A stretch of DNA of 60,723 bases from Raillietiella orientalis (Eukaryota), in the NCBI GenBank assembly GCA_036172245.1, contig JAYWIR010000022.1, positions 3,162,001 through 3,222,723 on the forward strand, written 5' to 3'. Shown here piece after piece: positions 1 through 60,723 of this stretch (position 1 is its first letter; each line of letters begins with the position of its first letter). The notes beneath the pieces are model-generated. The model made no database searches and had not been told where the DNA came from. It saw nothing but the letters and a program-made list of their open reading frames with translations. A program made the translations under genes and the position numbers.

Positions 1-759
1 GCGCGTCGGCGAGGGGCGTGATGGCCAGGCGAGTCCACTTCTGGCTGTTCCAGACCTCATCCACCGTACAGGCTTCTCCCCCTGAAGTGGCAAGAGTCGG
101 CGCTGCTGCTGTTGCACTGGGGTCTTCCCTGCAACGTGCGCCGCTTCCACTGGACGCGGGGAGTGTAAGGCCTGATTGTTCCAGGTGTGGGGAGCGGGAA
201 TCGCTCCCCCACCTTCTTGTTGACTGTGCTGCCCCTCGATCCCTATGGGAATGGTTCGGGACGACTCTCGGGCTCCCAAAGGGCAGCACGCCCAGAGACG
301 TTTTCCGTCTTCTCTTCGTGCGGGACGCCCTACAGCCAACCGCAACGTTGCAGCGCTATGCTGCATCCGCGGCATCTAGGCTGCCTGGAGTGATGCCCAC
401 GACGAAGGAGTGGATTTACGCGAGAGGGATGTCATCCCATACGCTCTTCGCTTCTTGGTGAGAGCTACAGGATGGCACCAGCTGGGACAAATGCAGATGG
501 ACCTCAAGGGCATCCTGTGAAGGATGGGCCCACCTCAAAGTGGACAGTGATCCCTTCCCCCCCCTCCTAACTTTTTGTTTTTCCTTACTTTTTATTTTTC
601 TTTTTGGTTTTTCTCCCCCATCCCCTTCCACTGCCGAGGAGAGTCACGCCGGACTGCGTCCCGGCGTCCCGGCAGGTCCGGTGTTGTGTGGCCGTTAGTG
701 GGGCCTGGTACCACGTATGTTGAATGTTTTTTTATAAACGCCCCGGGATTATCCGGGTG
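1..759 (+). mobile_element. L1/Tx1-like non-LTR retrotransposon, 3' end (degenerate zf-RVT, 3' UTR, terminal hairpin)
   Basis: PDCSRCGERESLPHLLVDC zinc-finger (zf-RVT-like) motif; pyrimidine-rich 3' UTR; terminal motif ATAAACGCCCCGGGATTATCCGGGTG at 734-759. Confidence 0.85.
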
Positions 760-762
760 GAA

Positions 763-2273
763 ACCACCGTACAGTACGGAGAGAGGTTGGCGCAACGGAG
801 TTCCAAGAGGGAAACACCCTGTTGCTTTGCCCACTCATGCAACGACTCCTGGCGCCAGGCGTTCAAGTTCGTTGGGCTGCAGGAGATCCATGCGTGGGTT
901 ACCAGGAGCCGGTAAAGCGGTTTCAAGGGGAAACCGAAGCTTCTCGTGGCGCGCTCCGTATGTGACCGGAGCGACAGAAGTCCTTCGCTGACGGTGCAGC
1001 GCCTCAGTAGCAGGCGCTCGGGAGTACACCACAGAGTGAACCAGAGGTTGACGCAAAGGGCCAACATCCAAAGCTGCACTTGCAGTTCTATCCTCTCCAG
1101 CGTCAGGATGCCCAAGCTAACATCCCGACGCGGAGCCGCCAAATCTTTGAGGCGGATCCTGGACCTCGCGGGTCCCCACAAAGCGTTTCTCAACAGGCGT
1201 CTCGCCTGGAGCTTGGCCGGGTAGGGGGGCGGACAAACAAAAAACAGGGAGCAGAAGAGGGGGGCAACGAAGGTGTTCCAAACGGAGGTCCGCTCCGGCA
1301 GGACGAACCTGCCAAGATGGAACGGGATTAGAGCACTCGCAGCCTTCCGAAGGCAGTCCGACCACGCTTCCACTAGACTGATGTCCCCCAGCGGGACTCC
1401 TAAGTACTCGAAAGACGAAGCGGTCGAGATCCCCAGGTGGACTGACCCCCACGCTGCACCAACAGGAACGACCACACTCTTGCTCCGGTTTATGCTCACT
1501 CCCGCTCCCCGGCGAATCATCTCGAGGAAACCCTCGAGACTGGACACCAGGGTGGTCATGGGTAAAAGGAGAAGCAGGTCATCGGCATAGGCCTCCACGG
1601 ACGGCGTACCTGGACAAGAGCTCGGCAGGTTGTCCAGTTACAGCCTGTACGCTCTCAACACCAACTCAAAGAAGATGCTGAAGAGCAACGGACTTAAGCT
1701 GTCGCCCTACCTGATGCCCCGCCGCACCGGCACGCCGTACACGTGGCAGCCGCTGAAACAGATCGAGATGAGCTCGTGGCGCCAGCATGCGCGCAAATAG
1801 GCCACGAGGTGCACCGGGAGACCGAGGCGTTCCAGGAGCTCCAGGAGGAGTTCCTGTTTGATGCGGTCCAACGCCTTGCGGAGATCGACCGCGACCGCCT
1901 GGAGCACGGCTACGGGAGGACCACGCGACAAGAGTGCCATCCAATGCGCCGCCCAATTCTTGAGGAGGGCGTCGCGATGGCCCCACCTGGATCCGCAAAT
2001 AAAGGAAGAGCTTGCCGGCATCCTGAGAAGGATGATACGGCCCCAGCAGCAACAGTGATCCCTTCCCGTACCCTCCCACTCTTTTTTTTCCTCTTTTTGT
2101 TTAGTTTTTTGTTTTTCCCCTTCCCCCTGCTGCCTCGGTGGACCGAACCGGTCTGCGAGCCGGTGACGCGGCAGGCTCCGTGTTTCTTCGCGCGTGGCTG
2201 GAGCATTACTACAGCCACTGACATCTTTTTCTAAAGTTTATTTTCAAATAAACGACCCGGCGAAACCCGGGTG
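763..2273. mobile_element. L1/Tx1-like copy with an inverted RT segment (763-~1900, minus) joined to a plus-strand 3' end (~1900-2273)
   Basis: Minus strand: VDLRKALD, GVPVRRGIR*GDSLSP, AYADD, FEYLGVP. Plus strand 1910-2273 aligns with the 3' end at 3350-3693 and ends in AATAAACGACCCGGCGAAACCCGGGTG. Confidence 0.8.
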
Positions 2274-2289
2274 AAAATCGAACGCCTTG

Positions 2290-3693
2290 TCAGCGGACGA
2301 AGGACCTCCTTTGTATCGCCCCTTGGGCAACGGGAGGGCCCGAGTCCGCTTGAAGGACTTTTGCGCTCCGCGTCGGGACGGCGATCTCGTTCTCCTGACG
2401 TTGGAGCGGCTGGAGCTTCAGCTCCAGTTGAGGATGATGGCCGTTGTGCCGGAGTTGTGGTGCACCTGCTGCTGGGTCCCTGCACGCCTCCTCGTCATGC
2501 AAGCCACCGGCAAGATGGGGCTCACGTCCTTTCTTGCACTCCATCGCAGCCGCATCAACCTATGTGGACTCCAGCTACGGAGGGTGGCTGCCTTGACACG
2601 GAAAAACCAAGGATTGATCACCTATCGCCTCGCGAACGGTGGTGCCTGGTTACAGGAAAGCGTTCTCACGTGGGCACAGAGCGGCATGCAACGCGCCGTA
2701 CAGGAACGACGGTTCCTGTTCGGGCGCTACAGAAGTTGCACGCTCCAAGAGACCCTGGAGGATCCCAAGAAGAGAGCGTGGTCAGGAAGAATCCTCCTCG
2801 CTGCTGCGCTGGACCTCCTAAGGGAAGATCTGGACAGCGGTGTTGCGGCGAAATGGGAGGTTAACGTGAAAATCTCCGGAAAGGAGAAAAAGATAGGAGA
2901 GTGGAAGACGGGCCAGCTAACAGACGCTGCGACCCCGAGTACGCCTCCCCATGGACTTCTGCGCTGGGGCGTGCTGCTCGATGTTCCCATTGAACATCTG
3001 AAGTGGCCCCCGGTGCTCATGAACACCTCCACTCTCCCCTTAAAATGGCAGGAGTCGGCGCTATTGTTGCAGCACTGGGGACTGCCCTGCAACGCCCGCC
3101 GACACCACTGGACCTGGGGAGCGGTCGACCCCAATTGTGTTAGATGTGGGGAACGGGAGTCCCTTTCCCACCTCCTTGTGGATTGTGTTGCCCTTCGGCC
3201 CCTTTGGCTACGCTTTGCCGCGGCCATCGGAATCCCCTGCGGCAACCCCAGGGACTCTTTAAAAGCCCTCTTCGTTGCCGACGCCCTTCGGCCAGCGGCC
3301 TCGTTAGCAGCCCTGTTCTGCCTTCGCGGGATCGTCGCCGCTTGGAGCAAGGCCACAGGAGGACCTCGCAATAAGGGTGTCATCCAGCACGCCTCCGAAT
3401 TCTAAGAGAGATCGTTGCGATTGCCCCACCTGGATCCAGGCATCCTGCGAAGGGTCCAACGGCCCCAGCAGCAACAGTGATCGCTCCCCGTACGCTCTCA
3501 CGTTTTCTTTTCTTTTTGTTTAGTTTTTTGTTTATTCCCCTTCCGCCTGCTGCCGTGGTGGACCGTACCGGTCTGCGAACCGGTGACCCGGCAGGCTCTG
3601 TGTTTCTTCGTGCGTGGCTGGAGCACTGGTCCAGCCACAGCACGTGTTAAAGTCTGTTTGTTTTATAATAAACGCCCCGGCGAAACCCGGGTG
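2290..3693 (+). mobile_element. 5'-truncated L1/Tx1-like element (post-RT region, zf-RVT, 3' UTR, hairpin)
   Basis: ORF 2287-3405 contains VDPNCVRCGERESLSHLLVDC; terminal motif at 3667-3693. Confidence 0.85.
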
Positions 3694-3697
3694 AAAA

Positions 3698-9373: not shown

Positions 9374-11306
<1,933 letters not shown>

Positions 11307-33059: not shown

Positions 33060-33155
33060 GCATCAACCCATCTATACATAGAAGTCGCAGGATCACGCTT
33101 CATATCACTCACCTTTATGTTTCTTTTTTGAATAAAGCCCCGGCGTGACCGAGTG
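33060..33155 (+). mobile_element. L1/Tx1-family 3' terminus (hairpin motif)
   Basis: T-rich tract followed by AATAAAGCCCCGGCGTGACCGAGTG at 33131-33155. Confidence 0.6.
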
Positions 33156-33385
33156 TCAACCCACTTGAGAAACCCGCGTCGCAGGCACTTTTCATGCAGC
33201 CTGAGGGCACCAGTCTCCCGTGGACGCTGATCTTCAGCCTTCGACATCATCCGATTCGTTGTGCCACGAATCGGGGCAAGGATGGGAGCCGATTCCACCT
33301 GCCACTATGCAGCCTTTATCTCCCGAATAACATCTTGACGATCATTGTTAAGAACTTGGTTCCCTGATCCTTTCCCTTCCTCCAC

Positions 33386-33455
33386 AGTCTTGCGCACGGG
33401 CAGTATCGTAGGCGAGGAAGGTGACTGAGCCGCGATTATTGCTAGTTGAAAACTT
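33386..33455 (+). pseudogene. U4 snRNA 5' fragment (retrocopy) with 11-bp flanking direct repeat
   Basis: AGTCTTGCGCACGGGCAGTATCGTAG...GCGATTATTGCTAGTTGAAAACT matches the U4 5' domain; no Sm site follows; CTTCCTCCACA at 33376-33386 and 33453-33463. Confidence 0.85.
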
Positions 33456-33789
33456 CCTCCACACGCAACGTCGTCTACCGCAGCGAAGTTTCCAGCTTCG
33501 CGAAGAATCGACCCTGCTTCTTGCTGGATGAACGGCGCCCCATCGATCAGTGAGGCGAGTTCATCTTTCTCTCTCCTCCCCCTTCACCTCTCTGCTGACT
33601 GCGCGGTTCGCGCCAGAGATGCATCCTCCGGCTATTGGGATTCGAACTCTCAGCAGCACCCATAAAGATTCCCATGGCCCTCTCTCTAATCATCTTTTTC
33701 TCCTAGCCCTCAGATCTCAGAGTGTCGCAGAATCCGTCTGTTTTTTCTGGACCAGCACTCGCAGCAGCTTGCGTTCAGCATTTCGTGGA

Positions 33790-34350: not shown

Positions 34351-34379
34351 AAAGCCTCCAAGCTCGCGCCCCTGGTGCA

Positions 34380-46800: not shown

Positions 46801-46842
46801 TGTTTTCTACGGTGACTTGCCTAGATTCGTTGGAAGTTTGAA

Positions 46843-48140
46843 CACGGTCGCGCCGAAGCGTTTATTCATAAAAACAAACCACGAACTTGAAGGGATATGT
46901 ATCGCCAAGACACAAAAAACGCCCATACAAAAAGTTCAACCGGAAAAACCACAGGCACGCAGGCCGCATGAAAAAAGATGGGAACGGAGAGAGGGGACAC
47001 AAAATAAACAAAAAACAAAGGAGGGTGGGGACGGATCTTTGGTACAGAACATTCCTCATCTAGAAGCGCCGCTTGACGATGGCGACTTCCCTGGCGAATT
47101 TTCTGGACAGATGAGCCCACCTTGCAGCTGCTGCCTTCATTATGTTGTTGGCTATGCTGGTGGCGTCCTTTCGCTGCGAACTTAATTCGAGCTCACGGTG
47201 GGCTGTCACGATGGCGCGGATGCAAAAGATTGTTGCGATCACAGCGCTTTTCTTCAGTCCGCCTTCGCTGAAGAAGCGTTTCAGCAGGTTGATGGAAGTG
47301 TCCTCGGGACGACGAAGTGCCGAGGCAAGTCTCCGCCACAACTCTCGAAAAACACTGCACTCCAGAAGTAGGTGCGGAAGCGATTCCATCGCTCTGCACC
47401 TAAGAAAGTTTGGGGAGGGAACTCCCCCGTAAACCAGGTGTCTACGCTGATTGCACTGGAAGCCCCAGTGCAGGAATAGCAGAACATCCTGTTTCCAAAT
47501 AAGCGGGAACACCGACGTGTCCACACAGAGAGAAGGGACCACGAGTTCTTCGAAGGGTACACTAAGAAGTTTACTCCACCGGAGGAGTCCCTTTACCTGG
47601 TGACGAGGACTGGCTGCATCCACCAACTCTCTCGTATTGCAGAAACTCGAAAGTTTTTCGACTACTGCAATACTGCAGGAGAACTCCCGCCCTGCCGGTT
47701 GGCTACTATCGTTGTTTGCCCTGAGGGCCAACAGCGCAGCCGCCAGAGGTGAGACGGCTACCCGGGACCAAAGCGACCAATCCTGCAAGATAACTTCAAG
47801 CGGTTTGCGTAGACCCTGTAGAGGGCGCATTTGCTCTAGACGCACATCCAAAGTGGAAGTCCAGTGCTCCAGAGCTTTCTGCCACCAGACATTCCAGTTC
47901 GTGGGGCGGCAGGAGATACAGGAATGGGCTAGCAACAACGAGGATAGATGCCTCAGAAGATAGCCAAATGCAGTCTCCCGGCGTAGGTTGCGCGGCAGTA
48001 ACGAAAGAAGTCCTGAACTGCTGATATATCGCTAGAGGCTATAGCGAGCCGGAGCACACCAGTGCGAAGACCACAATTTCCCACATAGGGAGAGAAGCCG
48101 GAACTGCTTCTGCAGACCAATCTGTTCCGTTCGACTCTCA
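46843..48140 (-). mobile_element. 5'-truncated L1/Tx1-like element
   Basis: HWGFQCN...RCRAMESLPHLLLEC; variant terminal motif AATAAACGCTTCGGCGCGACCGTG at 46843-46866; starts directly after the hairpin at 48148. Confidence 0.8.
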
Positions 48141-48147
48141 GCCTTGA

Positions 48148-49600
48148 CACCTGGATATGCCGGGGCATTTATATATGAAAAAATAAAAACACAAAGAATT
48201 GTCGCGTGGCGAACCCGAAGGTCCACCACACCAAAACAGCTTGCTGCTTTCCGACGCTATGCCGGCGAGGTCCTTCCGATGCGCGGGGATGGGAAATAAA
48301 AAACAAAAAGAAACAAAAAGTTCAAATGTGTGGGGGGGGAAAACAAATGTTATAGGGGTGGGAGGGCGGGGAAGGAATCACTTTGCGCTTGGATAGGTCC
48401 TCTAGATCCTATTCAGGATCCGGACAAGCTGAGCCCTGTCTGCGCCTAAGTGGCGCCACTTGCAGACACTGCGCGCGAAAAGGCGAGTCCAGTGTAAGGC
48501 GTTGCCGGTTGGCTGACGCCTTCTTCTGGTGGCGTTCCAAGCCGCCACTATTCCTCGGATGCAGCAGAGGACTGCTACACTAGCGGGCGGGGACAAGGCG
48601 TCACGACAGAAGAGGCGCCTGATAACGTCCTTTGGGCCGCATCCGCGCAAGTCCAGGATCGCCGCAAGACGATCCCACAAAGGGCGGAGGGCGCTACACT
48701 CAAGAAGAAGGAGGGGGAATGTTTCCTTTTCCCCACACCGGTCGCAGTTAGGATCCACAGCCCCCCGGGTGGTGTGATGCAGGCGTGCTTTGAATGGTAA
48801 TCCCCAGAGTACCACAAGGAACGCCACATCCTGCCATTTCAGGGGGAGGGAGCCACTGTTCCAGGACACTGGGAGCCACTTCATCTTCTCCGGAGATAGT
48901 CCGAGTAGCTCGACCCAGCGTCGAATTCCGTTGGGCGGGTCACTCGGCGTCGCAGCATTTGTTGGCTGCCGAGATGTCCACGCCTTTATCGTTTGTGTCC
49001 TGCCGCCTATGGTGCAGGACACGGTCCATTTACCCTGCTCGCTACTGTCCCAGGCATTTATAAGGAAGGGCACCACTGGGGCAAGGGGGGTAATGTGAGC
49101 CCACAGAAGCTTATCGTGGAACTGCACGATCTTCTGCAGCGTCCAGCGGGCGTGGCTTTTTAGGCCAGTGTTCTTTGTGCCCGCCGGAACGTGGATCTTT
49201 TCCCAGGTGGAGACTGACTCATGCAACCATGCAGAGGAGTTCCCTGGGAGGCAGGAGATATAGGTGTTCTCCCGTGCCACAACGGCCATTCGTCGCAGGT
49301 GAAAGTCGTTGTGTGCTTTCCTGCGTTGGCACACCAACGGAAACGACAAAAGTCCGCCGGATCCGAAGGCTCGTTGGGTCAGGAGGCGTGCTGGGACGCA
49401 CCAGGGCGTGTCCCACAGTTCTGCCGCGAGGGCGAGAGTCCTAAATGGAATTTGCACTTCCATGCGCTCCAGCGTAAGAGCGCCAAGTCCACCATCCTTG
49501 CGTGGATAGCACAAGTCTTTGAGTCTCACACGGGACCTCCCTTTGCCCCAAAGGACTGTCCTCAGGAGACCCGCTGCTCTTTTACGGACAAAATGAGGAC
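48148..49600 (-). mobile_element. 5'-truncated L1/Tx1-like element fused to virus-like segment 3
   Basis: ORF 48402-49529: RKDGGLG...VDPNCDRCGEKETF; terminal motif at 48148-48172. Confidence 0.85.
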
Positions 49601-50969
49601 CTTAGAGCAGAACGCCTCCCACTCAGGGGAGAAGTCTTATTTTGATTCCACAGCCTGTTGCGACGTGTGGGGATAAGCATAGCGTTGACTTTGGATATAC
49701 GTTTAACATAAATGATCCCAAACGTTCGAGGGTAGAGTCTGCGTCTGAGTCATTAAAGTTGGTTCTACGTTGCCCAGTTATGTAACGAGCATTAATGTGG
49801 TGGTGCATCTCATTTAACATAATGCCCGCATAGGCTTCGCCCAGAAATATCATTTTCGATCTCTGGGCAGTTGGCAGCTTGTGCCCAGTTTACCAAGCGT
49901 TCAAACGCTTCGTAGGCCACAGCATGCCTATGAGTGCCTGCGAGTGCCTACGAGTGTCTCCACGTGGAGACAAAAACCTCAAAAGTGCGTCTTGGGAAAT
50001 CGTTACGGGCTTAAAGGGTGGACCATGCACAGTTAAGAGGACAGACTGAATCATATGCGTAAAGCCAGCTAATTCTAATACACGTAATGTGCTACATAAA
50101 TGTCCGAGAGTGTGAGCTACGTCCATGCCCTTTTCCTCCGACAGGGGAGACCGGGCAAACAACGACCGCCACACTTAAAGTGGATAGCCAGCACCCCTTG
50201 TGCTGTCTTTTCTGACTCCTGTATGGTGATTCGTTAGCCACCACGACACTTTAGTCGCGATGACTAGTACCATACAATTCGTGGAAAGCTGTTGGTTCAA
50301 TGCTGCCTGACTTGAAGCTCTCTGCGCGGATGTTAGATCATAGCTCTGTGTAGTCGGCCTCCAATCGCCGTCTGGTACAAGCACCCCGTTGACTGATCGA
50401 TATCGCACCATGTCGTACGTGAGCAGTGCATGGATTCCATTAACCATGAATGTAAGTTGAGCATCCTTGAATTGTTTCGAGCTGTATAACCACCCATTGG
50501 CTACAGCTGCCATGTTCTTGATGGATACTCTCGAATTTGTGGGTTGGTACACAGGTAAACGCTTATCTTCTGGGAAATCTATGTCAGTTCCAGTATTCAA
50601 CCCGATCTCGATATCTCCATGGAGATCAGGGAGGCTGTTACTGTATTCCTCGAAAGTGGACACAAGTTCATCTTCACTAGCTGCAGCCATTACATACTAA
50701 GTCAAGTACTACCTGAGGTGAGAAAGAACATTAGCATCTTTTGCAAAGTCACATGCCTACCCTATTAACCCCAATTGCCATGCATGAACCATAACATGTA
50801 CATTCCCAGCACTCGACTTCCATTATCACAGTCTATAAACATGCTTATCATGCCTATAAGGGTCCCGGGGTCTACCTGGCCACTGTGATGTTGGACCGAG
50901 TCAGTGTTGATTTTTCATTGATGATGAAGGCTGTGATCCCACTCCTTCATTTTACGACGTAGAACCCTC
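49601..50969 (-). pseudogene. Putative endogenous viral element, nucleoprotein-like segment copy 3 (CDS from 50690; disrupted, 3'-truncated)
   Basis: Homologous to copies 1 and 2 (IATKVSWWLTNHHTG, HTLGH, HINARYITG); intronless; stops and frameshifts. Viral assignment is from recalled motif similarity. Confidence 0.6.
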
Positions 50970-51323
50970 GTGTTTGAAGTCCCCCGCGACGAGGTGCGGC
51001 ACTTGGGGGCCGGAGTTGTTGAGCCAGTGGCTCTGCACCTCACCAAAGAAAGCTACTCTTTCTTCGAGGTAGCGAGAGCCACTCGGCGCGTAGACGTTCG
51101 TAACGACGAGATCGATGGACTCGGACCACTTGATGACAAATTGGCCTACCCGTCCGTCGTCGTCGAAACGAACACTACGCACCGCTTCCGCCATTTTTCG
51201 TCGTACGAGGAACGTGACGCCGCACATGTGTGAGTCGCCGCACCGCCAATGTAGCGTTCCTCCTGCGCGCTCCTCGATTTCGGCTGCCTGCTCGTCGGAG
51301 ATTACGTGAATCTCCTGCAGGGA
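50970..51323 (-). mobile_element. APE endonuclease-domain fragment of the L1/Tx1-like family
   Basis: LQEIH, CGVTFL, DDDGR, NVYAP, HLVAGDF are canonical APE motifs. Confidence 0.85.
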
Positions 51324-53010
51324 CAGCCACGCCATCGCAAACCACACCTTGTGTTCCATCGACTGCCTATATGTGAGTGACCCAATAAACTACACACACA
51401 AAATCCAACAAACTTCATTCATACAATATTAACATATACAGTCATGAACACAGAGTAATGGCACGATATAGGGAGGGCGATCACTTTTTTATTGCATGGG
51501 CTCGGCCGCAGGCAGAACTTACTCGTGTTGCCTCAGCCTAATGGCTCGGGGAAGCCTATGTTCAAATGTCCTGATCGCCTCATATAGCTTTGTTCTTATG
51601 CCTGCTATGCGATCAGTCCCTAGGGTAGGAGTGATCATCTCTATTGTCTTGAGTGAAAGTTCTTTGGGGAATTTGGAACAAAAGGCTTCCCACTCAGGGG
51701 TGAAGTCCTCTTTAGATTCTACAGCTTGTTGTGACATGCGGGGAGAGGCACAACGTGGATTTAGGATACACATTTAACATGAATGATCCTAAACGTCCAA
51801 GGGTGGAATCAGCATCCGAATCATTAAAATTGGTTCGGGCTTGACCGGTTATATATCGTGCACCAATATGGTAATGTTTCGCATTCAGCATTATTCCCGC
51901 ATAGGCTTCCCCCAGGAATAGCATATTTTCAATCTCTGGGCAATTGGCCGCTTGTACCCAGTTGACTAAGCGCTTGAACGCTTGATAGGCAACCGCATGC
52001 CTGTGGGTGCCGGCGGGTGGTGACAAGAATCTTAAGAGTGCGTCCTGCGATATTGTAACGGGCTTGAAGGTTGGCCCATGCACAGTCAAAGGGATAGATT
52101 GTATCATTTGTGTGAAACCAGCCAGTTCGAGCACATGCAACGTGCTACAAAAGTGCCCAAGCGTGTGAGCAACATCCATTCCCTTTTCTTCTGATGAGGG
52201 AGATCGGGCAAATAGCGAACGCCACACTTTAAGCGGGTAACCAGCACCTCTTGTACTGTCCTTACGTACACCGGTATGGTGATTGGTTAACCACCACGAC
52301 ACCTTAGTTGCGATAACCAACACCATACAGTTTGTAGCAAGCTGCTGGCTGGCTGGATGCCCTTTGTGCGGAAGTCCAGTCGTAACGTTGTGGAGTTGGC
52401 CTCCAGTCCCCGTCTGGCACAAGTACTCCATTGACGGATCTAAATCTTATCATGTCATATGCCAATAATGCGTAAATTCCATTTATCATTAGGGTTAACT
52501 GGGCGTCCTTGAATTGCTTTGAACTATAAAGCCACCCGTTAGCCACTGCTGCTATGTTCTTAGTAGTCAATCTGGCATTAGTGGGTTAATGTATCGGCCA
52601 ACGCTTATCCTCGGGTAAGGCTATGTCCGTCCCAGTAGTCAGCCCGATCTCAATGTCCCCATCAAGATCAGGGAGACTGCTACTATATTCTTCAAACGCA
52701 GCTGCAAGCTCATCCTCACTCGCTGCAGCAATATTGCACCGGAACAAGTACTACCTGAGGAAAGAAAGTGCATCAACACTCATTGTAGAGACATATTCCC
52801 ACCCCATTTCCCCCAGATACCATGCATGAACCATAACATGCTCATCTCCAGTATTCGGCTTCCACTATTACAGTTCATATACATGCTCAGCATGCCCATA
52901 AAAGTTATGGAGTCTACCTGGCTACTGTGATATTGGATCGAGTTCGTATTGATATTCGGATGATTTTTAAAGCGATGATCGCACTCTCTTATGTTACGAC
53001 GAAGAACCCT
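51324..53010 (-). pseudogene. Putative endogenous viral element, nucleoprotein-like segment copy 2 (~1.7 kb with UTRs; CDS ~52730-51490, disrupted)
   Basis: FEEYSSSLPDLDG, TKVSWWLTNHHTG, SPPAGTHRHAVAY, YHIGARYITG; start codon lost; frameshifts. Confidence 0.6.
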
Positions 53011-53040
53011 CAGGTATTATAGCGGGAGATTGAAATTTGT

Positions 53041-53849
53041 CACCCGGTCACGCCGGGGCGTTTATTAATAATAAGAAACCGGTCAGGGACAATGTCCCCA
53101 ACCAACAGAACGACAGGGAACAGAAAGGAATTACCGGCACGCAGGCCTGGCAAACAAACCGCTTGCAACGTGGGAGGAATGAGGGGAAAACAAACAAAAA
53201 TCAAAAACTGGAGGGAAGGGTAACGGGTTTTTGGTTAGGATCCGTACTCACGGGGATTTAAACGGGGAGCACCTGAAATGTTCCGGAGCCTATGGGGATG
53301 CGGATGTAAAAAGAAAATACAAAATTAGTTCATGGAGGGTAGGGCAATGATCACTGGGTTGGTCGCTGCTGAGCTTGTGTAAACCGGCGGTGTATTTCGG
53401 CGAGATTCCTTCTTGACTCCTGTCAAATGAGGCCATGTAGCGGCTGCTTCCATGTAGAAGGATGCTTTGCCGATTACCTCTTGGTGCTGCCCGTTGATTA
53501 CCAACGCCTGGCGGACTGAAACTATCGCGCGTATGCAACCGATGGTTGCAATCCTTGCGCTTAGGGACAGACCGCTCGGCGTGAAGAATCGTCGCAGCAA
53601 GTCTCTTGCGGTGTCCACGGGATGCATTAGTGCTGTTGCCAGCCTACGCCACGGTCCTTGTAGGACACCGCAGTCCAGAAGTAGGTGTGGGATCGACTCC
53701 GTCGACCCGCATCGAACGCAGTTCGCAGATGCAAGTTCCCCGGAGTCTCGATGCCAACGCTCGTTGCACTGAAAACCCCAGTGAACGAAAAGCAGCACGG
53801 CTTGTTTCCAAGCAAGGGGGAGCAGCGAACTGTCAACACTGTGAAAAAG
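53041..53849 (-). mobile_element. 5'-truncated L1/Tx1-like element fused to virus-like segment 1
   Basis: HWGFQCN...NCVRCGSTESIPHLLLDC; terminal motif at 53041-53066. Confidence 0.85.
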
Positions 53850-55622
53850 CAGCCACGCCATCGCAAACAAAACTCTCGGTTCCACCATCACGATATTATA
53901 TCTGAAATGATAACAATAGATAAGTGAAAAACCACTGTCAGTACTGTATGCCCTTTATTATCACGTAATTACAACTTAATCCATACAGACTAATAACAAT
54001 AATGATACAATCAACAATAACAACTGGAACCACATCCATTCTGGTTGTACATTGCAGGTCAAATGTAATCTTGCACTTAAACTGGCTCAGCAGCTGGGAT
54101 AATTTCCTCATGTGGTTGCACATCATGTAACTGGGGCATCCTCTGCTCAAATGCGCGAATCGTCTCATACAGCTTGGTACGTATCTCTGCTACTTTGTCC
54201 ACTCCGGGTGTTGGTAAGATCATTTCTATGGGCTTCATGGCTAACTCTTTGGGAACTTTTGCATAGAAACCGTCCCACTCTGGGGAAAAATCTTTGGATT
54301 CAATAGATTGCTGAGTCATATGGGGGGATGAACACAAAGTAGACTTAGATTAAAGGTTCAGCATGAAAGAGCTTAAGCGTCCTAGGGTACAGTCCGCATG
54401 AGCATCATTAAATACACGCCTGGGCAAACCAGTTAAGTATTTTGCTCCGATGTGATACATTTTCGAGTCCAGCATTATATTGGCATATGCTTGCCCCAGA
54501 AAGATCATGTTTTCAATTTCCGGGCAGTTTCCTTCTTGTGCCCAGTTTACCAGTCTTCGAAAAGCCTGGTACGCCACAGCATGCCTGTGGGTACCGGCTG
54601 GTGGTGATAGAAATCTAATCAGAGCATCCTGGGAAATTATTAGTTCTTTGAATGGCTCTCCAGTTATATGCAAAGGATAAGTCCGCACAAGTCCAACAAA
54701 TCCAGCTAACCTAAGCACCTCTAATGTGCTAGCAAAATGCCCAAGTATGTGAGCAGTCTCCATTGCTCTCTCTTCTGACACTGGAGACCTACCAAATAAA
54801 GCTCTCCATACTTTCAGAGGGAAGCCTGCGCCTCTCGAGCTATCGCGCCTTACACCGGTATGATGGTTTGTTAACCACCAGGATACCTTGGTGGCAATAA
54901 TCAACACCATCATGTTGTTAACCATTTGTTGATTAATAATCGTAGGGGCAGCTGATCTTTGTCCAGGTGTAGTATCATGCCGAGTGGTGATCACTTTCCA
55001 ATCTCCATCTGGGACCAGAGGCTGACCTTCACCTTCTCTCTTGAATCGTATCAAGTTATAGGTGAGCATACCATACACCTTATTCATCATCATGGACAAA
55101 GGGGTGTCTTTATATAACTTCGTAGAGTGTATCCAACCGTTAGCAACTGCGGCTATATTCTTTATAGTAGCTGTTGCATCAGTTGGTTGGTATATTTGCA
55201 GTTTCTTATCGTCAGGTAACGCAATGTCCGTACCAGTCGTAAGCCCAAGCCCGATATTCCCATCTAGGTCAGGCAAACTGGCACTATATTCTTCGAAAAC
55301 ATTGGTAGGAACCTCTGGATTTGTGGTAGCCATTTTATCGTAGATATGTAGCAACCTACAGTGAGAGAGATCTGGTTAGATTACATAGGATAATAAGGAT
55401 ATTCCCCCCTAAAATCCACAAAACCCAACATTGTGCTCATGCAGGTGATTGAGGCCAGGTGTTTCATGCAGTTAGTGACTGTTATCTGACAGCACTTTCA
55501 CCACACTTATGGAAATACCTGGTTGTCCTGAGTAGCCTCTAAGATGAACGAGGGTTCTGACATTTCGATAATAAGCTGTAGGGTATGGATAGTATACGAC
55601 GACATACATTCAAGGGGGGTCG
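53850..55622 (-). pseudogene. Putative endogenous viral element, nucleoprotein-like segment copy 1 (~1.8 kb; CDS 55333-54077, ~420 codons, one frameshift near 54350)
   Basis: ORF 54350-55354 continues in the 54077-54337 frame. Intronless, with a composition unlike the flanking LINE. Motifs ATKVSWWLTNHHTG, PPAGT and YHIGAKYLTG resemble, as recalled, qinvirus-like segment-2 proteins. Confidence 0.6.
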
Positions 55623-55630
55623 GAGATTGA

Positions 55631-55699
55631 AGTTTTCAACTAGCAATAATCACGGCTCAGTCGCCTTCCTCGCCTATGATACTGCCCGTGCGCAAGGCT
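55631..55699 (-). pseudogene. U4 snRNA 5' fragment (second copy)
   Basis: Reverse complement AGCCTTGCGCACGGGCAGTATCATAG...GATTATTGCTAGTTGAAAACT is nearly identical to 33386-33454. Confidence 0.85.
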
Positions 55700-55740
55700 A
55701 TCAGGTGAAGATAAGTTGAGATTGAAGTAAGATTTGAACG

Positions 55741-55858
55741 GAGATTGAAGTCTCCCGCTATCAGGTGAGCCTTTCGCACGTTTGTGTCCGCCAGCCAGTT
55801 TCGTTTTAGGGTTTCCAGCAACCTGGTACGGTCGGGATAGCCCTTTTTCCCGCTGAGT
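55741..55858 (-). mobile_element. Short APE-domain fragment ending at the GDFN motif
   Basis: Reads RLLETLKRNWLADTNVRKAHLIAGDFNL, paralleling FFGEVQSHWLNNSGPQVPHLVAGDF at 50975-51050. Confidence 0.7.
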
Positions 55859-57706
55859 TCACACCCGGATGTGCCGGGGCATTTATTTCATGGAAATAAA
55901 AATACATTAAAATGTCGCGTGGCGAACCCGAAGGTTCACCACTCCAAAACAGCTTGCTGGTTGCCAGCTCTATGCTGGAGAGGTCCTTCCGATGCGCGGG
56001 GATGGGAAATAAAAAACAAAAAGAAACAAAAAGTTCAAATGTGTGGGGAGGGGAAAGCAAATGCTATAGGGGTGGGAGGGCGGGGAAAGGATCACTTTGC
56101 GCTTGGATAGGTCCTCTAGATCCTATTCAGGATCCGGACAAGCTGAGCCCTGTCTGCGCCTAAGTGGCGCCACTTGCAGACACTGCGCGCGAAAAGGCGA
56201 GTCCAGTGTAAGGCGTTGCCGGTTGGCTGACGCCTTCTTCTGGTGGCGTTCCAAGCCGCCACTATTCCTCGGATGCAGCAGAGGACTGCTACACTAGCGG
56301 GCGGGGACAAGGCGTCACGACAGAAGAGGCGCCTGATAACGTCCTTTGGGCCGCATCCGCGCAAGTCCAGGATTGCCGCGAGACGATCCCACAAAGGGCG
56401 GAGGGCGCTACACTCAAGAAGAAGGAGGAGGAATGTTTCCTTTTCCCCACACCGGTCGCAGTTAGGATCCACAGCCCCCCGGGTGGTGTGATGCAGGCGT
56501 GCTTTGAATGGTAATCCCCAGAGTACCACAAGGAACGCCACATCCTGCCATTTCAGGGGGAGGGAGCCACTGTTCCAGGACACTGGGAGCCACTTCATCT
56601 TCTCCGGAGATAGTCCGAGTAGCTCGACCCAGCGTCGAATTCCGTTGGGCGGGTCACTCGGCGTCGCAGCATTTGTTGGCTGCCGAGATGTCCACGCCTT
56701 TATCGTTTGTGTCCTGCCGCCTATGGTGCAGGACACTGTCCATTTCCCCTTCTCGCTACTGTCCCTGGCGTTCACAAGGAAGGGCAGCACTGAGGCAAGG
56801 GGGGTTATCAGAGCCCACAGAATCTGGTCGTAGGACTGCACCATTTCCTGCAGCGTCCAGCGGGCGTGCCTTTTCATACAAGTGTTCCTTGTGCCCGCCG
56901 GAACGTGGATCTTTTCCCAGGTGGAGACTGACTCGTGCAACCAGGCGGAGTAGTTCCCTGGGAGGCAGGACATCCAGGCGTTCTCCCGAACCGCAACGGC
57001 CATGCGTCGCAGGTGAGAGCCACAGTGCACTTCTGCCGACGAGCGCCAACAGAAACGACAAAGATCCGCCGGCTCGTTGGGCCAGGAGGCGTGCTGGGAT
57101 GCACCAGGGCGTGTCCCACAGTTCTGCCGCGAGGGCGAGAGTCCTAAACTGAAGTTGCATTTCCATGCGCTCCAGCGTAAGAGCGCCAAGTCCACCGTCC
57201 TTACGTGGAGCGCACAAGTCTTTGAGCCTCACACGGGACCTCCCTTTGCCCCAAAGGACTGTCCTCAGGAGGCCCACTGCTCGTTTTCGAATAAAATGAG
57301 GGGCGGGGCACACAAAAAGTAGAAGGCGAAGGAGGGGGCCGCAAACGCGTTCCACACCGCGGCCCGTTCCTGCAAGTAGAACTTGCCTTCTTGGAACGGA
57401 CCGATCGCCAAGGCTGCCTTTTGGAGACGTTCGGATCAGACTTTCGCTGCGCAGAAGTCCCCCAACGGTACGCTGAGATACTTGAAGCACCTGCTCGTGG
57501 GGATCCCCAAGCGGATCCAGTCCGACCGTCCAGCCCACGCCGAACCGACAAAGACCATGGACGACTTCGCCCTGTTCACCTCCAGGCCCGTCCCGCGGCG
57601 CAGCAACTCGAAGAAGTCCTCGAGTGCACTCGCCGGGGTGGACCCGGGAAGCAGCAGCAGAAGATCGTCTGCATAGGCCGACACGGCAGGCGTGCCGGCA
57701 CACGAG

Positions 57707-58590
57707 CTCGGCAGGGTTGCCAGAGATACCCTGTATGCTCTTAGCGCAGTAGATGCTGGAGACCGGAGTAGATGCTGCAGCTGTGCATGTATATGGCGCC
57801 CTTCTTGAGGTAGAGAAATTTGGCAAATGTGGTTTTGCCGTGTCCACCTTCGGGGTCGAAGAACCAGTATATTTTTCTGACGTCAGGGGTTGTTCTTATA
57901 AGTTTTAGTATGTCTATCTGCCATGTACGAAGTTGGAGTCCAGCCATGGGATTTGGATGTAATCGGCTTCTTGTTAATCGGAAGCATTCTTTGACGAAGT
58001 TTATGTTTTTGCTGTAGAACTTCGTATGGTTTTCCAGGATGTCAAGCTCTGTTGCTCCGTTTTTAATTTGCTGGAGAATCTGGAAGATATTGGAATTATT
58101 ATCATAATATATTATAATTACCATGTCCTGGTAGTCGGTCGTTTCTTTGTGTTGTTGTAATAGGCCGTATGTCCACGCTTCCTTATCTTCTTTTGTGCAG
58201 TACCGTAAGTTGCTTTCGGGTGATCCTTTTGCTCGTTCGAGATGTGCTTTGTCGAATGGCGGTCTTTTGAGGCTTGGCAAGGTTCGTGGATCGCGTAACT
58301 GGAAATAGCCTTGCAGGTGAGGTGTTCCAGTGGAAGCTGTTTCCTTGCCGATGACTGCATAGGTACATTGGCGTCTGCACCATTCTTTTATCTGTTGGAG
58401 TTCTTCTTCGATGTAATTGCATAGTGTGAAACACCAATAGAGAAAGTGTCCGTAGGGCATGATGTCTTCAGAAATTCTGTCGAGGTGAGACTGGTGTATG
58501 CCTCATTGTGTGGTGGTATATATACTTGGTAACTCGGCAGGGTTGCCAGAGATACCCTGTATGCTCTTAGCGCAGTAGATGCTGAAGACC
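57707..58590. repeat. 58-bp direct repeat of LINE sequence flanking the Rep insert
   Basis: 57707-57764 and 58533-58590: 52 bp identical (CTCGGCAGGGTTGCC...GTAGATGCTG), then one mismatch, then AGACC. Confidence 0.9.
57765..58460 (-). pseudogene. rep: CRESS-DNA-virus Rep (HUH endonuclease plus start of SF3 helicase), nanovirus/circovirus-like, 3'-truncated
   Basis: RCR motif I WCFTLCN, motif II PHLQGY, motif III YCTKE, Walker A IYWFFDPEGGHGKTT; the sequence breaks off before Walker B. Confidence 0.92.
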
Positions 58591-58878
58591 AAAGGGCTCA
58601 GGCTTTCACCCTGCCGTATGCCGCGGCGCACAGGCACACCGTACACTTGCCGGCCGCTGAAACCAATGTTGATTATCGCGTTGCGCCAGCAGGAGCGCAT
58701 GTAGGAATGGAGCACGGCCGGCAAACCCATGCGTTCCAAGAGCTCCAGAAGGAGTTCCCGATCTACGCAGTCGAACGCCTTGTGCTCTCTAGGGTGGACG
58801 CGTTTTCTCGGTGCTCCTCGTGCCAGGAAGTCTCCCCCAGTGCAAGCGTCGTGTGGTTCGGTGGTCGATCAGGCAGCG

Positions 58879-59916
58879 ATGCCTGACGCGACCACCAGGG
58901 ATGGCCAGGGGGCAGCGGCAACGCTGGCCCCAGAGGCGATGGAGAGCCAGGAGGCGGCGGCAACGTCGCCCCCGGAGGCGATGGAGGTGGGGGCATCCGG
59001 CCCCACAGAATCGGTCCCCGCTGCAGCGCGGGCGTGGAGCGCCGTTGTGTCGGCGCCATCACCTGCAGCCGCGGCGGAATTGTCGGCCTATGTAGAGGAG
59101 GGGTACAACCCCTCATTGTTCTACAAGGTAGGCAATTTATATTCTTTAGAGAGCGCGCGCGCCTTCTCGAAGGGCATGCGCGCTCTCGATGTAAAAGAGG
59201 AGGAGCTTAGCGCTATGACCATCCGCAGCGGGGGTCAGTACGTTGAGGTCATCTGCAAACAAGCAGAGCTGGCCCAACGACTGCTTAAAACCCCCGTTGT
59301 GATGGGGACGCGCAGGCTCCTCCCAACTACGGCGGACCGCAGCATGGTGGTCCACCTGTTAGGCGTGACCGCGCGAATGCGCAAAGAACAGGTTCGCGCC
59401 GCTTTGGAACAGTTTGGAAGGGTCCACGCGCAGTGGACGAAAGTTAGTCCTTTCGAGGACTACACGGGGCTGCAACACGGCCTCACTGCTGCGCGCGTGA
59501 CCGTTCGGGAGGGCTGCACTCTTCCCCACTAACTGGTGGTCGAAGGCGAAACCGTCGACCTCTGGTATGTGGGGAAGCCGAAATACTGTGGCTTCTGCAA
59601 TACGTCGGGCCACCTCAAAAAGAGGTGTCCCAATGTGCAGTGCCAAGTATGCGGCACAATGGGCCACACGAGGGAGGTGTGCTCAAAAGCAGCAGTGCGG
59701 GTGGTTTCCAAGAGAAACCTTAAAAAACGCGCCCGGCTTCTGCAGAAAAGGCTGGCGGCGAAAGCTGCCGCGAAGGCTGTGCCAATCGCGCCCAAGACCC
59801 AGGCCGCACCCGTGACCCCGGCGACCAACGCCGAAAAAGTTGAGGGAGACGCCCAGGAGACTGGGTGGCAAGTGGCAGCGGACAAAAAATCAAAGAAGGA
59901 GAGGAGGATGGAATAG
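58879..59916 (+). mobile_element. L1/Tx1-like ORF1 (Gag-like, two CCHC zinc knuckles) with an internal stop at 59530-59532
   Basis: CGFCNTSGHLKKRC and CQVCGTMGHTREVC; WSAVV motif; RRM-like VRAALEQFGRV. Confidence 0.85.
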
Positions 59917-60276
59917 AAAATCGCCTACCAACAGAAGAAGAAAGAGCAGGGTAGCGCGATAATTAAAAAGTGCAGCGTCGTTGTCGAACGCGTTCTCGAT
60001 GTTGCCGAACGCTGCCGGAAAGAACTCGCCGCTACCGACGACCTCCCCTCTGTTGACACAGTCAACAGTGAGGTGAGCGAGCCGGCGGCGGCGTACGTCA
60101 TCGACACCACCATCGATGACGTAGCCTTCGCGCGAGCCGCGGAGGAGCTGGCAGCCTCGTTCCAGCCAGCCCCCTCCGCGGCCAGTTGGAGGACGTGTTT
60201 TTCCTTCACTCCCCAAAGAGTAGTAGGAAAGCGCTTTTTCTTCTGTGTGGTGTTTTGTGTACATCGTCGGTGTCCA

Positions 60277-60723
60277 ATGGCCACAACGCCAGAGGACACC
60301 GCGATGGAGGTGGGAGTGGGGGAGGATAGTTCGCCCCCACAGCCTACTGGAGCAGGGGCAGCCGCCCCGGAATCATCCCCGGCCACGCCGAGGACATGGA
60401 GCGCCATGGTGGCCGCGCCCAGCGCAGAAGCCATGGCGGAGATGGCCGCATAAAAGGCCTCCGGGTACTAGCCATCGCTTGTCTACCAGGTAGGCAACTT
60501 GTTCGACGGCCGGACAGCGCGCGCCTTCAGCAAAGCGTTGAAGGACGCGAATGTTAATGAGAAGGATCTGGACGGCCTCTCCGTCCTCAGCGGCGGGCAG
60601 CGGGTCGAGGTGGTCTGCAAAGATGTCACCTTGGCTCACCGCCTTATCCATGCGCCGCTGAACGTAGACGGCCGCAAGATCCTGCCAGTATCTATGGACC
60701 GCTCCGTGGTGGTCCACATGACT
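60277..60723 (+). mobile_element. Second ORF1 copy (related subfamily, with stops), running off the window end
   Basis: TWSAMVAAPS...PSLVYQVGNL...SGGQRVEVVCK...DRSVVVH is colinear with 59030-59357. Confidence 0.8.

Follow-up and report, generated by a model that had tools for sequence, protein, structure and literature searches.

The minus strand of the window (the whole 60,723-nt stretch of Raillietiella orientalis contig JAYWIR010000022.1 that was analysed) carries, between positions 46837 and 58868, four head-to-tail, 5'-truncated non-LTR (LINE) units, A to D, with 0-18 nt between the end of one unit and the start of the next. This region is probably a mosaic of retrocopies, produced by the reverse transcriptase (RT) of one promiscuous, self-clustering LINE family as a by-product of its activity during viral infection of the germ line. 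The units hold seven cargo pieces: a fragment of a CRESS-DNA-virus Rep gene, a copy of the U4 snRNA, three copies of a gene predicted to encode a viral nucleoprotein (N), and two pieces of a LINE apurinic-type endonuclease (APE). All seven are in sense orientation relative to the LINE 3' ends, as expected if sense RNAs had been copied. The identities, order, strand and boundaries of the pieces, their repeats and their pattern of divergence were read directly from the window (Table 1). Re-reading returned the same minus-strand order of units and cargo as the original prediction, and likewise its single orientation: the 3' ends of one LINE family all point one way. Units had been said to begin within about 10 nt of the preceding hairpin; they do abut, at the somewhat wider spacing given above.

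Table 1. Features of the LINE array and of related elements in the window (window coordinates)
Feature	Position	Strand	Remarks
Unit A	~58868-55858	-	RT, Rep insert, RT remainder, 3' domain, UTR, end motif
5'-truncated LINE RT fragment (start of unit A)	58533..58868	-	Pfam RVT_1 2.6e-7, 31.0 bits
58-nt repeat, copy 1	58533-58590	-	last 58 nt of RT fragment
CRESS-DNA-virus Rep fragment	57765..58532	-	Pfam Viral_Rep 8.7e-16, 58.4 bits (cutoff 26)
58-nt repeat, copy 2	57707-57764	-	start of RT remainder
Rest of unit A	55858..57764	-	RT with YADD, 3' domain (stop at 56116), 3' UTR
End motif of unit A (AATAAA plus stem)	55862-55886	-	
Unit B	55857-53037	-	APE fragment, U4, viral segment 1, LINE 3' part
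LINE APE fragment (start of unit B)	55700..55857	-	through GDFN motif
U4 spliceosomal snRNA copy	55537..55699	-	Rfam RF00015; sense relative to LINE
Linker after U4	55526-55536	-	11 nt
Viral segment 1	53850..55525	-	whole 1,676-nt copy, N-coding sense
LINE 3' part of unit B	53037..53849	-	end motif 53041-53065
Unit C	53036-48144	-	filler, segment 2, APE fragment, segment 3, LINE 3' part
Filler of unit C	53019..53036	-	18 nt; contains 10-mer common to APE GDFN region and U4
Viral segment 2	51324..53018	-	whole 1,695-nt copy, both termini
LINE APE fragment between segments 2 and 3	50974..51323	-	LQE motif to GDF
Viral segment 3	49596..50976	-	3' edge ~49596
LINE 3' part of unit C	48144..49595	-	end motif 48148-48172
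Unit D	48143-46837	-	LINE 3' part, degenerate end motif
LINE 3' part of unit D	46837..48143	-	degenerate end motif
Conventional zinc-knuckle ORF1 of the LINE family	58.9-59.9 kb	+	
Second U4 copy	33386..33466	+	5' 81 nt only; joined to same-family LINE
Further head-to-tail array, same LINE family	1..3697	+	ends at 763, 2277, 3697
Further array, same LINE family	32560-36555		

Segments 1 to 3 are diverged copies of one gene, and stops or frameshifts are present in all three. The frame of segment 1 (~432 codons) has one in-frame stop, at 54350-54352. Segment 2 lacks an ATG at the aligned start codon and has one premature stop plus frameshifts; segment 3, with stops and frameshifts, keeps its 5' terminus and is cut at its 3' end within the C-terminal coding part. 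From structure prediction, the gene is a qinvirus-like nucleoprotein, of a negative-strand RNA virus. The AF2 model of N (pLDDT 86.7) had seven matches in BFVD at E <= 1e-3 (TM 0.64-0.76), four to named qin or qin-like viruses and three to proteins annotated as nucleoprotein or nucleocapsid protein. The N frame matched no Pfam family and nothing in PDB at E <= 1e-3; PDB sequence searches gave nothing at E <= 0.1, PHROGs and a word-index protein search were empty, and the ESM Atlas returned no usable match. The copies share 52-71% amino acid identity with one another and at most 37% with any of 1.84 billion representatives. Synonymous differences between them are saturated (pS 0.79-0.89) and non-synonymous differences are few (pN 0.075 and 0.23-0.25), which indicates that the copies evolved apart as functional viral genes and only later were captured, each separately. 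Viral homology, the host chromosomal context and the disabling lesions in all three N copies mark these sequences as endogenous viral elements (EVEs).

The two whole copies also resemble complete viral segments. IMG/VR contigs with an N homologue are 1,601-1,883 nt long, and segments 1 and 2 fit this range. One such contig (L010) has 13-nt complementary termini and another (L008) has the same motif near both ends; the starts of the window copies match this motif at 7/8 and 8/10 positions and their ends match its complement at 7/8, a comparison that covers two of four contigs, the ends of L009 and L011 being different. End-to-end complementarity within each window copy is only about 6/8. Segments 1 and 2 finish in an identical 17 nt, which has just these two exact matches in the window, and are then followed by differing LINE sequence.

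The original prediction of cargo from both ssDNA and RNA viruses was borne out by the Rep fragment alongside the N copies. The Rep piece consists of a leader of ~70 nt and codons 1 to ~232, with no internal stop. It encodes the HUH endonuclease domain and Walker A and ends ~60 aa short of the usual terminus; cut off after Walker A, its superfamily-3 helicase is incomplete. Its best match among PDB Rep chains had an E-value of 1.4e-14, and it is colinear through Walker A with Reps on 2.0-3.2-kb IMG/VR contigs (30-35% identity). A 42-nt AT-rich stretch, considered as an intron, aligns with a variable linker of related Reps. RT and Rep had been described as parts of one unit; both are present, with Rep lying inside the LINE RT domain, between the copies of a 58-nt direct repeat (57/58 alike, 98%).

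U4 had been called a fragment, a description we drop because the Rfam alignment (63 bits against a gathering score of 46) spans the model end to end, positions 1-138. The 3' half of this copy adds only ~4 bits over the 81-nt second copy, which lies 226 nt past a LINE end motif at 33132-33155. Cargo is not exclusively viral: the window has U4 twice and the LINE's own APE pieces twice. Leaders of segments 2 and 3 were also considered as derived from the 3' half of U4; their local alignments were like those of shuffled sequences (z -0.9 to 1.9), and the Rfam U4 model had no match there.

The family had been placed in the L1/Tx1 clade. Of the markers relevant to such a placement, the window has APE, RT and, in the plus-strand ORF1, CCHC knuckles; zf-RVT scored under the Pfam cutoff. 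No named relative was found for the LINE 3' domain in the word-index protein search (among longer proteins), and a PDB search with the RT piece gave no useful match. The APE homology in unit B begins 4 nt past the end of unit A, and this piece is 30% identical over 37 aa, up to GDFN, to the other APE piece (BLASTP, E 2e-6); a motif-like stutter of ~50 nt directly follows it. The APE fragment between segments 2 and 3 scored 18.4 bits (1.9e-3) for Exo_endo_phos, below the Pfam cutoff of 24.5, and a contig from sequencing run X1 is identical to 50974-51321. We rejected the 17 nt shared by segments 1 and 2 as the start of APE: the Pfam alignment and the X1 contig begin downstream of it, and in reverse complement it agrees with the viral terminal motif. 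The LINE 3' part of unit C is 91% identical in amino acids to that of unit A, whereas unit B's belongs to a different subfamily (53% to unit D). For unit D, the first 37 aa show homology from residue 7 onwards (E 2e-8). A 5'-truncated LINE of another kind follows unit D on the same strand, with its RT at 45422-46093.

All four LINE 3' parts reach the family's own 3' terminus, three recognised by a conserved end motif (AATAAA plus a 5-bp stem) and the fourth in degenerate form. With up to three mismatches allowed, the motif has four matches in the window, and a looser pattern, defined after the ends had been viewed, has seven exact matches; none of 100 shuffles contained any match to either. 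The end of unit D matches neither pattern and folds no better than shuffles (z +0.28). These ends had been described as terminal hairpins. The motif and its stem are conserved, but only one of the six ends folded reached z <= -2, so "hairpin" denotes a conserved motif and not a proven structure. The window has eight 3' ends of this LINE family, four per strand. Five run into recognisable LINE sequence within 0-18 nt (in one case LINE of another kind), which fits the earlier proposal that the element inserts next to itself; one is followed by the 18-nt filler and viral cargo, and two by mainly unidentified sequence.

The junctions include 0-18 nt that could be assigned to neither neighbour. Their inspection revealed an 11-nt match at the 3' junction of Rep and an overlap of 4-6 nt between segment 3 and LINE. 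The GDFN region of APE and U4 share 13 nt of identity, located at or near four junctions. The two APE-to-virus junctions are offset by ~14 nt, indicating independent origins. Neither a target-site duplication (TSD) nor a poly(A) tail was found for any unit by reading the borders (for TSDs also by repeat search), so target-primed reverse transcription is not directly shown; TSDs may be unrecognisable where units abut one another. The exact RNA-end junctions, the microhomologies, the re-copied 58 nt and the uniform sense fit serial template switching by a LINE RT, the mechanism that had been put forward earlier.

For the retrocopy mosaic, we infer the RNA templates, the order of the jumps and the making of each unit as a single cDNA. 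Synthesis would begin at the AATAAA-plus-short-stem motif of a LINE RNA 3' end and continue on other germ-cell RNAs. To form unit B, the RT would pass from the LINE 3' part to the exact 3' end of a full-length, N-sense qinvirus-like segment RNA, run off at the viral 5' end onto U4 snRNA, copy this from 3' end to 5' end, and move on to the LINE's own APE region. Unit C would arise by a switch from the LINE 3' part to an internal site of a second viral RNA, copied to its 5' end, then to the LINE APE region at the GDFN codons, then to the exact 3' end of a third viral RNA and, from that RNA's 5' end, to the 18-nt filler. In unit A, the switch would lead from the LINE RT region to an internal site of a CRESS Rep transcript and on to the transcript's 5' end; the return onto LINE RNA, 58 nt downstream, would re-copy 58 nt. 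New cDNA would join a resident copy precisely at its 3' terminus, through self-targeted insertion or else because the RT jumps to another LINE RNA's 3' end. The present sequence would fit both sequential accretion and a single cDNA made by serial jumps. If unit C is one cDNA, two diverged viral lineages must have been present in the same cell simultaneously. Full-length antigenome RNA, moreover, is normally coated by nucleoprotein, and its use as template is not obviously easy.

Two further arrays of the same LINE family are present in the window, one of them (1..3697) including a unit with an inverted 5' part. No viral sequence was identified in either, which suggests that array building belongs to the element and not to a virus-specific system. 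Host genes in the window comprise cathepsin L exons at 9.4-10.6 kb and a spliced host exon. One cathepsin L exon resembles proteins from many animal phyla, with identities of up to 73%, and so marks the host as a metazoan. The ORF at 31934-32440 was considered as retro-copied cargo, but a splice-acceptor-like site precedes it and it has the look of an exon resident in the host genome.

These two arrays bear on the view that the region is a selected, heritable antiviral archive, an analogue of piRNA clusters whose one-way transcription would yield small RNAs against the captured viruses. This reading is compatible with an origin by template switching, since it only adds a function. Within 12 kb of dense transposon sequence, one strand carries four pieces derived from viruses of two unrelated groups, three diverged lineages of one viral gene are kept at a single locus, and in Aedes cells EVEs in transposon-dense loci give rise to anti-genomic piRNAs (bioRxiv 10.1101/127498). 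We nevertheless consider the archive unlikely: arrays of the same family occur without identified viral sequence, the two U4 copies and the LINE's own pieces are expected of non-selective template choice, and a piRNA-based antiviral system cannot be assumed in this host. Also improbable, in our judgement, is the wider idea that a non-LTR family would be a recorder of infections of the germ line, extending itself in one direction by chaining to its 3' ends, with whole antigenome copies of three lineages and ssDNA-virus transcripts in an array that templates antiviral small RNAs.

The region could instead have originated at the DNA level, from independent LINE insertions and viral DNA fragments later reshaped by deletion, microhomology end joining, duplication and gene conversion. 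The 58-nt duplication around Rep would also fit an insertion at a staggered break, and the TATA-like run ~60 nt upstream of the Rep ATG, within the captured piece, is unexpected in an mRNA template. Microhomology likewise marks end joining, and a ~600-nt block shared by units A and C at 99.5% identity, with flanks at only 58-97% per 60-nt stretch, suggests exchange between neighbouring copies. However, every cargo piece reads in the sense direction, exact RNA termini delimit two of the viral segments, the U4 copy stops precisely at the snRNA's 5' end, the LINE pieces end at the family's exact 3' terminus with the next unit immediately after, and RNA-virus sequence needs reverse transcription regardless. 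We therefore regard a DNA-level origin as doubtful.

Mis-joining of similar LINE repeats during assembly, which would make the array or some junctions unreal, is very improbable. The region is repeat-dense, near-identical blocks lie 7.7 kb apart, and no unit junction is confirmed by a read or contig; yet the joins pair unlike sequences (virus to LINE, U4 to virus) outside shared repeats, and three diverged N copies cannot be one collapsed sequence. A search of sequencing runs listed one run, X1, apparently DNA and containing 0.11 of the sampled words, and no RNA run. Contigs from X1 were placed at >=90% likeness as 85 pieces, nearly all on LINE parts, and none of those listed bridges a unit junction. 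The two joints reported from X1 connect similar LINE pieces, one with only 30 nt on the shorter side, and the placement neither supports nor refutes the assembly. Finally, N as a working part of a composite retroelement, for example replacing the LINE ORF1 and diverging in the genome under selection, can hardly be right: the copies are far closer to one another than to any representative, show strong purifying selection and each lie upstream of LINE sequence, but they have virus-like segment termini on both sides, are followed by different LINE parts (mid-APE without its first ~30 aa, the 3' domain, a site upstream of the 3' domain), have in no case their own LINE 3' end directly attached in a common fashion, and the family has a conventional zinc-knuckle ORF1 on the other strand.

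Template switching of LINEs to snRNAs is described from several clades, including triple chimeras (PMC4476161, PMC2104539), and for U6/L1-type chimeras preferred switch sites and double switches are documented (PMC4476161, PMC2104539, PMC11838501). As in U6/L1 and tripartite chimeras, 5'-truncated LINE 3' parts in the array are directly joined to sense copies of other RNAs, among them an snRNA whose copy extends to the 5' end. It differs in that the snRNA is U4, whose chimeras with L1 are described as extremely rare in mammals (PMC4476161), in its head-to-tail chaining, and in showing neither TSD nor poly(A); the text of PMC11838501 on LINE chimeras contains neither "virus" nor "viral". Once a cDNA is finished, the R2 protein jumps to further 3' UTR RNAs, both in vitro and in cells; its products include cDNA fused to U6 and head-to-tail tandem copies (PMC11371274). 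Jumps to the 3' ends of further RNAs, fusion to a spliceosomal snRNA and head-to-tail products would be common to both systems. Unlike R2, with its restriction-like endonuclease and rDNA target, the array element is APE-type and has no identified target site. Like the EVE-rich piRNA loci of Aedes (bioRxiv 10.1101/127498, PMC5497376), the array combines non-retroviral virus and retrotransposon sequence in a repeat-dense setting; those loci have LTR partners and measured piRNAs, whereas the array has a non-LTR partner and whole segments with exact termini.

The mechanism is a known one, exemplified by U6/L1 and tripartite chimeras; in the array, each unit would involve four to five switches, and the templates include viral ones. 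Chains of head-to-tail, 5'-truncated non-LTR elements, the 3' end of one abutting the truncated 5' end of the next, make up the HeT-A/TART arrays at Drosophila telomeres. The arrays in the window share this orientation and junction type, but they occur on both strands beside ordinary genes, and a chromosome-end location is unlikely. Mammalian bornavirus-like nucleoprotein elements are processed copies of mRNA type that lie at scattered loci and have poly(A) and TSDs. The array copies, by contrast, represent full-length segments, terminal sequences included, and are joined to LINE pieces. Common to the array and the mammalian elements (PMC4982594) are a negative-strand nucleoprotein gene, the germ line and LINE machinery, L1 in mammals.

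The array offers a junction-by-junction view of how a non-LTR RT can convert viral RNA to DNA that is inherited. Viral segments complete with both termini are joined to LINE sequence at microhomologies; inferences of such fusion mostly concern LTR elements in insects and mRNA-type copies in mammals. Qinviridae were called obscure in 2024, with trypanosomatids as the only confirmed hosts, and the EVE treated in that account is tombus-like (PMC11108086). The present copies place qinvirus-like viruses in an animal germ line and keep three diverged lineages of them as fossils. The LINE family indicated by these findings switches templates and clusters with itself unusually often. It could supply its host genome quite generally with chimeric genes and EVEs and, if the recorder reading were true, would represent the LINE equivalent of the EVE clusters that LTR elements have built in mosquitoes, in an animal that is not among the insects investigated to date.

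We read the minus strand of the array using open reading frames, Pfam, Rfam, and tblastn within the window. Four 5'-truncated LINE units (A to D) lie head-to-tail on this strand and carry seven cargo pieces: a CRESS-DNA-virus Rep fragment, a U4 snRNA, three nucleoprotein (N) segments of viral origin, and two APE pieces. These searches bore out the single-strand order of LINE, Rep, U4, APE, and virus-like parts described in the original prediction. Similarity of the APE fragment in unit B to the other APE piece begins 4 nt past the end of unit A (E 2e-6), and similarity in unit D starts 18 nt past the end of unit C (E 2e-8). Contigs of the one sequencing run compared with the window contained related LINE copies at 90-99%, and none of the pieces listed bridged a unit junction. 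The features are summarized in the table.

Features of the array, and LINE 3' ends in the window
Feature	Position	Strand	Remarks
Unit A	~58868-55858	minus	Begins within LINE reverse transcriptase (RT); RVT_1 31.0 bits
Rep fragment, breaking up unit A	58532-57765	minus	CRESS-type; Viral_Rep 58.4 bits
Unit A after Rep		minus	YADD, C-terminal domain (stop at 56116), 3' UTR
Unit A end	55886-55862	minus	AATAAA and 5-bp stem, then a few A's
Unit B	55857-53037	minus	Opens with APE endonuclease fragment
U4 snRNA, unit B	55699-55537	minus	Rfam 63 bits, model positions 1-138
Linker, unit B			11 nt, between U4 and segment 1
Viral segment 1, unit B	55525-53850	minus	Lesions: one stop
LINE 3' part, unit B	3' of segment 1	minus	0.8 kb; different subfamily
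Unit C	53036-48144	minus	Opens with 18-nt filler
Viral segment 2, unit C	53018-51324	minus	Lesions: ATG absent at aligned start codon, one premature stop, 11-nt gap
APE piece, unit C	51323-50974	minus	350 nt
Viral segment 3, unit C	50976-~49596	minus	Lesions: two stops, 20-nt insertion, 2-nt gap
LINE 3' part, unit C		minus	1.45 kb; 91% aa identity to unit A counterpart
Unit D	48143-46837	minus	LINE 3' part
LINE of another kind, next after unit D	46093-45422 (RT)	minus	5'-truncated; Pfam
LINE 3' ends	763, 2277, 3697, 33159	plus
LINE 3' ends	55858, 53037, 48144, 46837	minus
13-nt site, junction 1			APE to segment 3
13-nt site, junction 2			Filler before segment 2
13-nt site, junction 3			Stutter before U4
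13-nt site, junction 4	33466		Break of second U4 copy
Regions of shared 2-nt gap	51700-51760 and 49640-49700	minus	Compared with 54290-54350

On the plus strand, positions 58880-60723 hold two tandem LINE ORF1-like frames, diverged copies of one another (47.5% aa), arranged head to head with unit A at its truncated 5' end. CCHC zinc knuckles are present in the first, and the second leaves the window before that region. These frames could be either separate pieces or a 5' part in inverted orientation.

The longest frame of viral segment 1 encodes 341 amino acids (55375-54350, minus strand); it belonged to no Pfam family, and a word-index protein search gave no match. A HMMER scan of 1.84 billion representatives with this frame returned 284 relatives at E <= 1e-3, including 19 at E <= 1e-30; the closest has 37% identity. 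Ten relative clusters were examined: eight had no name and came from contigs of 1.2-1.9 kb, and one was a JGI protein of unnamed function on a 2.1-kb contig. The tenth, from the ant Formica fusca, is annotated as a "hypothetical protein" and lies on a 15.5-Mb contig; it may be another endogenous copy of the same virus family in an animal genome. An AlphaFold model built from 59 sequences was confident (pLDDT 86.7, pTM 0.83). Searched against predicted viral structures, it matched seven proteins (E 3e-18 to 9e-11, TM 0.64-0.76), four from named qin(-like) viruses and three annotated as nucleoprotein or nucleocapsid; the weaker rows were nucleoproteins of other negative-strand viruses. Against the PDB there was no match at E <= 1e-3, and rabies N heads the weak list. 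In the family alignment, a 90-aa frame past the stop at 54350-54352 is the C-terminal part of the same protein; segment 1 therefore holds one frame of ~432 codons with a single in-frame stop.

The N homologue was also found on four IMG/VR viral contigs of 1,601-1,883 nt (4 of 44 candidate stretches confirmed). One of these, L010, has 13-nt complementary ends, and the motif recurs close to each end of a second, L008; the ends of L009 and L011 are different. The starts of segments 1 and 3 match this terminal motif at 7/8 and 8/10 positions, respectively, and at the other end segments 1 and 2 carry its complement (7/8). An identical 17 nt closes segments 1 and 2; these are its only two exact matches in the window, although the LINE sequences that follow the two segments differ from each other. 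At 1,676 and 1,695 nt, segments 1 and 2 are of a length consistent with a complete small segment. Our conclusion is that the N-coding-sense RNA of a qinvirus-like small segment was copied into DNA in all three cases, over its full length in segments 1 and 2 and with the 3' end cut off in segment 3. Because of the terminal sequences, we infer that the template was probably the antigenome, not mRNA.

The three N copies are diverged. Segment 1 shares 58-71% of its amino acids with the two frame pieces of segment 2 and 52% with segment 3. Compared codon by codon, the proportion of synonymous differences is 0.79-0.89 and saturated, whereas non-synonymous differences amount to a proportion of 0.075 for segments 2 and 3 and 0.23-0.25 for segment 1 against the others; identity is 36-48% at third and 77-94% at second codon positions. 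Nearly all of the divergence thus arose before capture, while purifying selection was acting, and the copies carry few lesions. Separate captures from diverged viruses are favoured by the exact viral termini, by the different LINE pieces attached to each copy, and by two APE-to-virus junctions that lie ~14 nt apart; these features speak against a single capture with later divergence inside the genome. A single-cDNA origin of unit C would mean that two viral lineages occupied one cell simultaneously.

A 2-nt gap relative to segment 1 is common to segments 2 and 3, just past a conserved SPH motif. Upstream of the gap, most differences between these two segments are synonymous in one frame; downstream, most are synonymous in another. 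From this pattern, the shared frame change does not look like decay after insertion; it looks like one that the virus lineage tolerated, by slippage, frameshifting, or use of two ORFs.

Rep has an open frame of 253 codons. In the PDB it matched eight sequences at E <= 0.01 (best 1.4e-14), which are solved circovirus-type Rep endonuclease domains. In IMG/VR, 7 of 54 stretches were confirmed, giving matches to seven contigs 2.0-3.8 kb long; the alignment is colinear from residue 1 to just beyond Walker A, with identities of 35% and 30%, and ends there. Two copies of a 58-nt RT stretch, alike at 57/58 positions, flank the fragment, its 3' border has an 11-nt Rep/LINE match, and a TATA-like run, which would not be expected in an mRNA template, lies inside the captured Rep leader.

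The junction anatomy supports the proposed origin by reverse transcription. All seven cargo pieces are in sense orientation; both ends of two viral segments and the 5' end of U4 are exact RNA ends, and internal borders have short overlaps. The APE GDFN codons and U4 share a 13-nt identity, which occurs at or near four junctions. Serial template switching by a non-LTR reverse transcriptase would account for these features: it would be the source of the sense cargo, exact ends, and overlaps, the 58-nt stretch around Rep would have been re-copied during a switch, and the 13-nt identity would be a recurrent switch site. The ~50 nt between the APE GDFN codons and the U4 5' end (55700-55750, minus strand) include two further, incomplete copies of the motif common to both, which looks like repeated polymerase slipping or short jumps. 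Target-site duplications (TSDs) and poly(A) tails were not found for units A to D. Chimeras of snRNA and LINE sequence are described in several LINE clades, triple chimeras included (PMC4476161), and preferred switch sites and a tripartite chimera flanked by a TSD have been reported (PMC2104539).

A second U4 copy (33386-33466, plus strand) comprises the first 81 nt only (59.2 bits) and breaks at a short motif common to U4 and the LINE GDFN codons. The LINE joined to it is longer (RT 34219-35496, ORF end ~36555), and its 3' UTR has no end motif.

The window contains eight LINE 3' ends of this kind. Recognisable LINE sequence follows within 0-18 nt after five of them, in line with the claim that the family inserts next to itself; after the 763 end it is inverted (tblastx E 1e-13), and after the 46837 end it is of another kind. 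Of the remaining three, one is followed by the 18-nt filler with a viral segment behind it, another by an RT-like stretch of 25 nt and then sequence of no recognised kind, and the third by 226 nt of no recognised kind before U4 and LINE. Given what adjoins these eight ends, chaining is therefore a habit of the LINE family. No viral sequence was identified in the family's other two arrays (1-3697 and 32560-36555, plus strand).

Chaining could reflect jumps onto further LINE RNAs within one long cDNA or self-targeted insertion, and exact joins free of filler fit such jumps just as well. The unit at 764-2277 (plus strand) has ~1.2 kb of antisense RT and 3' domain, then a sense 3' end, and starts exactly at the preceding unit's 3' end. 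From its arrangement it looks like a separate insertion of the twin-priming type at a resident 3' end, and it mildly favours self-targeted insertion. For their triple chimeras, the authors of PMC4476161 leave the same two possibilities: the enzyme switched twice, or another copy inserted into the 3' end of the first. R2 protein can pass from a finished cDNA to further 3' UTR RNAs, with cDNA fused to U6 and head-to-tail tandem copies (PMC11371274). Units A and C share a ~600-nt block (56142-56741 and 48428-49027) at 99.5% identity, with flanks at 58-97% per 60-nt stretch; this suggests later gene conversion between neighbours or recombinant LINE templates.

Of the predicted terminal hairpin, the recurring motif was borne out more clearly than the structure. 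The end motif (AATAAA and a 5-bp stem) had four matches at <=3 mismatches, and a looser pattern, devised after the ends had been seen, had seven exact matches; none of 100 shuffles gave any match to either. The motif is far above chance expectation. Folding z-scores for six ends were -2.0, -1.1, -0.7, +0.3, +0.5, and -1.4, and as a structure it is weak.

Beside the arrays lie host cathepsin L-like exons (Peptidase_C1; 9445-10594, minus strand). Identity of the cathepsin L exon to proteins of many animal phyla does not exceed 73%, whether from molluscs, vertebrates, or arachnids; the host is, judged by its sequence, metazoan. A host terminal exon (31934-32440, plus strand) has a splice-acceptor-like site, a stop codon, and AATAAA signals, and a LINE 3' fragment follows directly. 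The suggested role of the array as an immune archive is a hypothesis that we consider very improbable. LINE template-switch chimeras and EVE formation are known kinds of event. The array is notable for how many template switches it would record, for complete segment copies that come from three lineages of a little-known RNA virus family, for the presence of an ssDNA-virus gene alongside them, and for a LINE that chains onto itself.
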